A stretch of DNA of 64,000 nt from a virus (Duplodnaviria > Caudoviricetes): IMG/VR virus record IMGVR_UViG_3300026549_000037, positions 96,001-160,000 of that record; one strand, 5' to 3'. The notes under the pieces were generated by a model. It saw only the letters and a list, made by a program, of their open reading frames with translations, did not search any database and was not told the DNA's origin. The translations under genes and the position numbers were made by a program. Positions 6,194-6,503 of the stretch are shown here, piece by piece (within the stretch, counting starts at the first letter, position 1; every line of letters starts with the position of its first letter).

Positions 6194-6503
6194 TGGGGGT
6201 TGGTGTAACGGTTAGCACGGCGGTCTTGAATTAGGGACTCCTTAAAGGAAACTTTAAGGTAATAAAGGAGGCTAAAACGGGGAACACCTTATCTTTTTAG
6301 ATAAGACAATCCCGTGCTAAATCAACTTTAGTTGTAAATGTGTAGAGAGCATAGACTTCCCACCTAAACCTATAGGGCATGGTGATAAGGTGCTCCAGAC
6401 TACAACGATTATCTAAAATATTCGGCTATGGTGACATAGAGTAGTATGCTAAAACCGTACCATTCTGAGTGGGTCAGCAAGGGTTCGAATCCCTTACCCC
6501 CTG
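6194..6503 (+). tRNA. intron-split tRNA; predicted spliced anticodon CUA (amber suppressor); exons 6194-6226 and 6449-6503
   Basis: Joined anticodon arm GCGGT-CT|CTA-AA-ACCGT; acceptor GGGGGT/ACCCCC; long variable arm; T-arm AAGGG-TTCGAAT-CCCTT. Confidence 0.85.
6227..6448 (+). mobile_element. group I intron, 222 nt, no ORF
   Basis: P1 GGTCT/GGACT with U-G at the 5' splice site; P10 TTAG/CTAA; P4-like AAAACGGGGA...AATCCCGTGCTAA; P7-like GAGCA/TGCTC; terminal G. Confidence 0.85.

Follow-up and report, generated by a model that had tools for sequence, protein, structure and literature searches.

Positions 6194-6503 (+ strand) of the window, the 64,000-nucleotide stretch of phage DNA that we analysed, hold a tRNA gene in two pieces, split after U33 by a 222-nt insert. 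The 5' exon (6194-6226, +; tRNA positions 1-33) contains the 5' strand of the acceptor stem, the D arm (6203-6218, +), the 5' strand of the anticodon stem (6220-6224, +), C32 and U33, and ends GCGGU-CU. The 3' exon (6449-6503, +; positions 34-73) starts CUAAA-ACCGU and supplies, in order, the anticodon CUA as its first bases (6449-6451, +), the 3' strand of the anticodon stem (6454-6458, +), a 20-nt variable region (6459-6478, +), the T arm (6479-6495, +), the 3' strand of the acceptor stem (6496-6502, +) and, as its last base, the discriminator G (6503, +); CCA is not encoded at its 3' end. Joining the exons gives an 88-nt tRNA with the loop CU-CUA-AA and the anticodon CUA, in which U1 lies opposite U72 and the discriminator is G73. 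The joined sequence is called as tRNA(cta), with the cloverleaf as its minimum free energy fold, and ARAGORN with introns allowed reports a tRNA of anticodon cta with a 222-nt intron, at the very junction that an initial annotation had proposed. The exon and intron ends named in that annotation (GCGGU-CU and G6448) hold in the sequence, as do the U1-U72 mismatch, G73 and the long variable arm, whose region measures 20 nt. Because the intron splits the anticodon loop, the gene is missed both by ARAGORN at its default settings and by the Rfam tRNA model at its gathering score.

A match to the sigma-70 promoter consensus lies about 130 nt upstream of the tRNA (6038-6066, +; a consensus match only, at 10 of 12 hexamer positions), and a terminator-like hairpin with a T-rich tail (6506-6545, +) is kept 3' of every allele at the locus that we describe below. 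On the other side, a flank with GCGTCGAG (window 6130-6176) stands directly 5' of every allele, those of relatives included; it is part of a repeated CGAC-stem element, and may mark a cassette border or a processing site.

Several other tRNA genes of the cluster, again including those of relatives, have inserts, 23-122 nt long, within or close to the anticodon loop (window 2787-2905 and 3028-3147; L016:261-455; L030:2581-2713). The length of these inserts falls short of a group I intron. The Rfam tRNA model spans two of the insert-bearing tRNAs with 42.9 and 49.5 bits. An insert-bearing tRNA of the related complete phage G005 is assigned the anticodon tca by ARAGORN, yet no TGA recoding was seen in G005. 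ARAGORN also calls a tRNA with a two-base anticodon at window 2372-2443, and misses a tRNA at 2131-2197 that Rfam detects.

The insert itself (6227-6448, +) has no ORF and is identified as a group I intron by an Rfam match, by its helices and by alignment. As the initial annotation had it, exon GGUCU (6222-6226) pairs with the internal guide GGACU (6235-6239) to form P1 (6222-6239, +), placing U33 (U6226), the last exon base, opposite G6235 as a wobble at the 5' splice site, while guide UUAG (6231-6234) pairs with CUAA of the 3' exon (6449-6452) to form P10 on the same strand; the terminal intron base is G6448 (+), the omega-G. Between these lie, all on the + strand, P2 (6240-6247/6252-6259, with a GAAA loop), P3 (6267-6271/6356-6360), P4 (6277-6281/6311-6315), P5 (6288-6293/6300-6305), P6 (6323-6326/6331-6334), P7 (6347-6351/6391-6395), P8 (6361-6364/6381-6384), P9.0 (6400-6403/6441-6444), P9a (6406-6412/6418-6424) and P9 (6426-6430/6435-6439, with a GUGA loop), so that the P3-P8 core contains the P3/P7 pseudoknot and, in an alignment of 12 introns, covaries. 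An alternative in which the unspliced sequence CU-UGA would serve as a Ser(UGA) loop was rejected, as it drew no call from the tRNA finders and would leave an intron that does not end in G.

A search with the Rfam group I model, which the initial annotation had suggested, matched Intron_gpI (RF00028) to 6215-6375 with 26.6 bits and an E-value of 8e-5, a score that does not reach the gathering threshold of 50 bits; the homologous intron of a sister phage, G004, scored 34.8 bits. At E-value limits of 0.001 to 0.01 the model misses most introns of the present set. As pointed out in Williams 2020 (10.1101/2020.01.27.920355), where cut-offs of 18-20 bits were used, its seed holds no bacterial sequence.

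The helices were examined in a plain MAFFT alignment of 12 distinct intron copies (alignment A3), which was not fitted to the structure. Standard pairs filled 95.5% of the P2-P9 cells, versus 31-44% when the partners were slid by 1-3 columns, and 23 of 46 pairs had changed on both sides, versus 3-7 after sliding; of 500 shuffles, none equalled the real alignment on four of five measures, and 3 did so on the fifth. P7 was invariant across the 12 introns, and all five pairs of P3 were compensatory, with five different complementary sequences. RNAalifold recovered P2, P4, P6, P7 and P8 unaided, and all helices from P2 to P9 could be drawn in three divergent copies. P9.0 covaries as CCAC with GUGG in one relative (L054) and as CUGC with GCAG in another (L058). 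Two further pairings were discarded: an extension of P7 offered by RNAalifold (UGUAG/CUACA), whose CUAC strand covaries instead with the tail before the terminal G, that is, in P9.0, and a complementarity between GUGGG of the variable region and CCCAC of P3'/P8, which we attribute to chance since by our estimate about three such 5-mers are expected. Taken together, the comparative evidence indicates that the intron is real and under selection to fold, and it would by its structure be self-splicing.

The locus belongs to a virus record of 169,637 bp with 35% G+C that is approximately 78% complete. With TAG read through, long ORFs covered 0.84-0.95 of the record's first 60 kb instead of 0.65-0.77, and ORF cover inside the window hardly altered. 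The record has 147 in-frame TAGs in 54 ORFs, concentrated in late genes, including one frame of 1736 codons with 13 TAGs and one of 2173 codons with 12; genes for portal and tape-measure proteins and for homing endonucleases lie in its first ~60 kb. The late-gene region also holds three more group I introns with scores of 50-54 bits (record 5755-6077, 11765-12104 and 34600-34867; L003, L002 and L001), and homing endonuclease ORFs with 4 and 7 in-frame TAGs adjoin late-region introns (record 5003-5956 and 12158-13348). Elsewhere in the record, a 1020-codon frame for an NAD-dependent DNA ligase (76450-79512; L008:16450-19509) contains a LAGLIDADG domain (amino acids 274-346) N-terminal of the adenylation domain, possibly an intein or a fused endonuclease.

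Sister phages of ~215 kb, reached via a late protein, have flanks that match the window locus, and among the present phage and three of them (G001, G002 and G004) the suppressor locus occurs in four states. G001 and G002, which match the present phage in TAG usage and are 97-98% identical to it over a marker protein, both carry an intronless 75-nt tRNA(CUA) with a short variable arm, and G001 has in addition a free-standing HNH endonuclease gene directly upstream (L015:1637-2308, - strand; 223 aa; phrog_3377, E-value 1.5e-34), between the conserved upstream flank and the tRNA(CUA). G004 has the short-arm body of G001 and G002 with a homologous intron ~64% identical to ours, as measured on the identical copy L069, and the present phage has a distinct body with a long variable region and its intron after U33. 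The intronless alleles read GCGGU-CUCUAAA-ACCGC: their stem differs at one base and their loop is the one predicted for the spliced tRNA. The splice junction is thus independently supported, and the loop that the initial annotation had expected from ligation is found both by ARAGORN with introns and in natural intronless genes.

In G004 the junction is CUCU|...G|AAA, after U35 and 2 nt further 3' than in the window intron. Its guide covaries with the shifted site, P10 being formed by UUUU with AAAA; P1 is weak in the register that yields CUA, with three contiguous pairs. New here are the four allelic states and the displacement of the intron by 2 nt, accompanied by a corresponding change in its guide. 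Between the sister phages the tRNA body is wholly different, while the flanks are ~90% identical; the locus thus shows suppressor genes exchanged as cassettes among sister phages.

The HNH gene beside the tRNA in G001 suggests that competition between an endonuclease and the intron, with co-conversion of the exons, may have been a cause of the body swap. The idea can be taken further, such that the intron shields its allele from a homing endonuclease that cuts the intronless tRNA(CUA), and co-conversion exchanges the body in the course of intron-endonuclease competition or collaborative homing. The HNH gene directly beside the intronless tRNA(CUA) of G001 and the replaced body between flanks of ~90% identity speak for such shielding; however, no endonuclease gene adjoins the suppressor tRNA in the present window. 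We consider it a tentative proposal of low probability, with somewhat better prospects than the alternatives below, and one that would complement rather than compete with our main explanation, in which the intron is a mobile passenger.

Beyond the present record, the split suppressor gene was detected in 12 metagenome contigs and in three more IMG/VR records. Eleven of the contigs have the long-arm gene, at least one of these being titled human gut, and one has the G004 type. Two complete phages of ~213 kb, L030 (= G005) and L031 (= G006), have a long-arm tRNA(CUA) with the intron after U33, 82% identical to the window gene. A first intron pattern returned G004 only, a looser one L030 and L031, and a three-block pattern the metagenome set; a blastn search with the locus had no hit among cultured phage records, nor did an exact 29-nt exon/P1 pattern in IMG/VR. 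The acceptor and T stems of the L030-type gene differ from those of the window gene by compensatory changes, and it keeps U1 opposite U72 as well as G73, with CCA encoded right after G73, which fixes the position of the discriminator. While the acceptor and T stems vary across the long-arm lineages, the variable region is almost invariant. By this conservation the 20-nt variable region is real; a 5-bp stem is possible within it, with no covariation to prove it.

Group I introns in the anticodon loop are well known from bacteria and plastids, in tRNA-Leu(UAA), tRNA-fMet, tRNA-Ile and tRNA-Arg, and belong to subgroup IC3. The present intron resembles them in being small and ORF-less, in its place in the anticodon loop, in the U at -1 and the terminal G, and in a P1 built from the anticodon stem. 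It differs in that its host gene is a phage stop-codon suppressor rather than a cellular sense tRNA, and in that a single intron family occupies two loop positions (after U33, and after U35 in G004) in two unrelated tRNA bodies. A 27-base core pattern is common to the window intron and to tRNA-Leu(UAA) introns, which are found after U34, the classical CUU/.../AAAA site (L058, L062 and L072, the last a 116-kb contig of an Oscillospiraceae genome bin), and also after U33 (L056, L067 and L071). Over aligned columns the tRNA-Leu introns are 62-68% identical to the window intron, with compensatory changes. The window insertion site CU/.../CUAAA corresponds to loop position 2Ug of a published scheme listing 21 classes of tRNA group I introns, in which 2Ug is the site of the classical fMet intron and all four classical classes of tRNA intron fall into IC3, according to the group I intron database (Williams 2020, 10.1101/2020.01.27.920355). 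By its sequence relationships, then, the intron is assigned to a family living in bacterial tRNA anticodon loops, the IC3 label being taken from Williams 2020. A related intron also lies in a tRNA-Leu-like gene of a metagenome contig (L054:1600-1881) that has a tmRNA gene (93.6 bits) in a dense tRNA cluster.

Self-splicing could make the altered code conditional, and the initial annotation had suggested that it could delay or condition the onset of TAG readthrough. Under such a splicing-gated switch, the rate or conditions of intron removal would time when UAG becomes readable and late genes are translated, with guanosine nucleotide level, Mg2+, RNA chaperones or a phage or host factor as candidate gates. 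The complete recoded genomes G004 and G005 yielded no contiguous tRNA(CUA), which leaves the split gene as the sole one found there, so translation of their late genes must pass through splicing; a published model has expression of the suppressor tRNA drive the late switch. In the present phage no second tRNA(CUA) was detected either, but as the record is ~78% complete, one could sit in the missing part. Against gating, the close relatives G001 and G002 have the same TAG-rich late genes and are intronless at the locus; moreover, two loop positions and two tRNA bodies are occupied by the intron, in the manner of a mobile element, and its 222 nt revealed neither a sensor domain nor an additional regulated element. 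Nothing indicates that the splicing step is regulated, and we judge a gate improbable. Were it true, UAG would be readable only as fast as the intron is spliced, and cell state or a phage factor would set the onset of late-gene expression.

Instead, since close sisters are intronless, the intron has no extra domain, two loop positions and two bodies are occupied, and mobile elements are its neighbours, we interpret the intron as a mobile or selfish insertion whose ability to splice allows it to be tolerated.

We next consider which amino acid the suppressor inserts. Pfam returned nothing for most late proteins, and because its profiles matched so few, the meaning of TAG was taken from comparison with sister genomes, by counting positions with TAG in exactly one genome of the present phage and G004 or G002 (n=121). 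Glutamine stood opposite TAG at 50 of the 121 positions (41%, versus a background of 3.7%), and the codons exchanging with TAG were CAA and CAG. Against G005, with its 46% protein identity, 21 of 95 TAG positions had glutamine, followed by Glu and Lys, as expected at glutamine sites. This pattern of exchange indicates that TAG means glutamine in the late genes. The long-arm tRNA would also insert glutamine, because the only tRNA(CUA) of G005 is long-armed and its TAGs exchange with Gln; this concerns the meaning under selection, not the charging.

The initial annotation had noted a mix of glutamine-like and serine-like identity cues, of which the glutamine side stood and the serine side did not. 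That the suppressor inserts serine (or Leu or Tyr) might be suspected from the 20-nt variable region with its possible 5-bp stem and from G73, which is the discriminator of E. coli tRNA-Ser. However, serine was opposite TAG at 6 of the 121 positions (5%, versus a background of 6.6%), which also led us to reject a derivation from tRNA-Ser of the supD kind, and Tyr and Leu were not enriched either. The glutamine pattern recurs against G005, whose only suppressor is long-armed, the D arm of the split gene is that of an ordinary short-arm tRNA, and the 1:72 mismatch and G73 occur in the short-arm alleles too, all of which makes insertion of Ser, Leu or Tyr very unlikely. Least credible of all is a decayed, non-functional gene with suppression coming from elsewhere, as the U1-U72 mismatch, the unencoded CCA and the sub-threshold Rfam score might hint, given that compensatory changes preserve the acceptor and T stems and P2, P3, P4, P8 and P9 across lineages, that the L030-type copy has CCA right after G73, and that complete recoded genomes have no other tRNA(CUA).

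Common to the three tRNA bodies are an unpaired 1:72 (U-U or C-U), G73, G2-C71 and G10, which we take to fit the identity of E. coli tRNA-Gln. In E. coli tRNA-Gln a weak or open 1:72 pair together with G73 favours glutaminyl-tRNA synthetase, and the amidotransferase route reads the 1:72 pair too. The 20-nt variable region is, to our knowledge, unlike that of any known tRNA-Gln. Laboratory counterparts date from the 1970s, in the form of mischarging mutants derived from the amber suppressor su+3 tRNA-Tyr of E. coli, long-arm tRNAs with CUA and a disrupted 1:72 pair or G73 that were accepted by glutaminyl-tRNA synthetase; the present tRNA is like them in its long arm, CUA, 1:72 mismatch and G73. 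The initial annotation had proposed a search of the genome for TAG-containing late genes, a release factor and a synthetase; the late genes are there as described, and no genes for a release factor, a GlnRS- or GluRS-type synthetase, GatB or a CCA-adding enzyme were found in the present and related genomes (G000, G001, G002, G004 and G005). Since such phage genes were not found, host enzymes must supply both charging and CCA addition, and charging with glutamine by host machinery is most likely. Among cultured phages, a helicase gene of the phage has its nearest relatives in those infecting Bacillota (34% identity).

Combining these results, we put at roughly 0.85 the probability that the locus is a phage amber suppressor tRNA gene with an ORF-less group I intron between U33 and C34, in support of the original proposal that the anticodon arm of an amber-reading tRNA forms only once a group I intron has been removed. 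In the model that we favour, the precursor would be transcribed from the tRNA cluster and the intron would fold, forming P1, including the U33-G wobble, between its guide and the 5' strand of the anticodon stem. An external guanosine would then cleave after U33, P10 and the terminal G6448 would position the 3' exon, and ligation of the exons would produce the 88-nt tRNA with the loop CUCUAAA. Host enzymes would trim its ends and add CCA, host machinery would charge it, most likely with glutamine, and the charged tRNA would read in-frame UAG in the virion-gene region, the first ~60 kb of the record.

The phage shares with code 15 phages (crAss-like, Lak and others) a tRNA(CUA), in-frame TAGs in late genes, the glutamine meaning and TAG-bearing homing endonuclease genes. 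Suppressors of code 15 phages have been published as contiguous genes (Borges et al., 10.1101/2021.08.26.457843; Yutin et al., PMC7886860), whereas the present gene needs splicing, is missed by default finders and shows both the 1:72 mismatch and the variable region of 20 nt. Theta (HDV-like) ribozymes likewise couple a ribozyme to the maturation of a phage suppressor tRNA (Kienbeck et al., PMC10879173), but they are of another class and lie 3' of the tRNA, whereas the present ribozyme lies inside it; no HDV-like match was found at window 6100-6600. A 2014 review assigned all the phage introns of its day to protein-coding genes, despite the many phage tRNA genes (PMC3984707), and we found no description of an intron-split phage suppressor tRNA in the literature searched. 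Likewise new here is the combination, in one tRNA, of a long variable region with an apparent glutamine meaning.

In published work on recoded phages, many genomes had no suppressor that could be detected, and intron-split suppressors offer one concrete reason for such cases, which annotation could remedy by permitting long introns or by looking for the exons. More broadly, the altered genetic code in such phages would depend on an RNA-catalysed step, and the tRNA that implements it may be a natural long-arm tRNA charged with glutamine.
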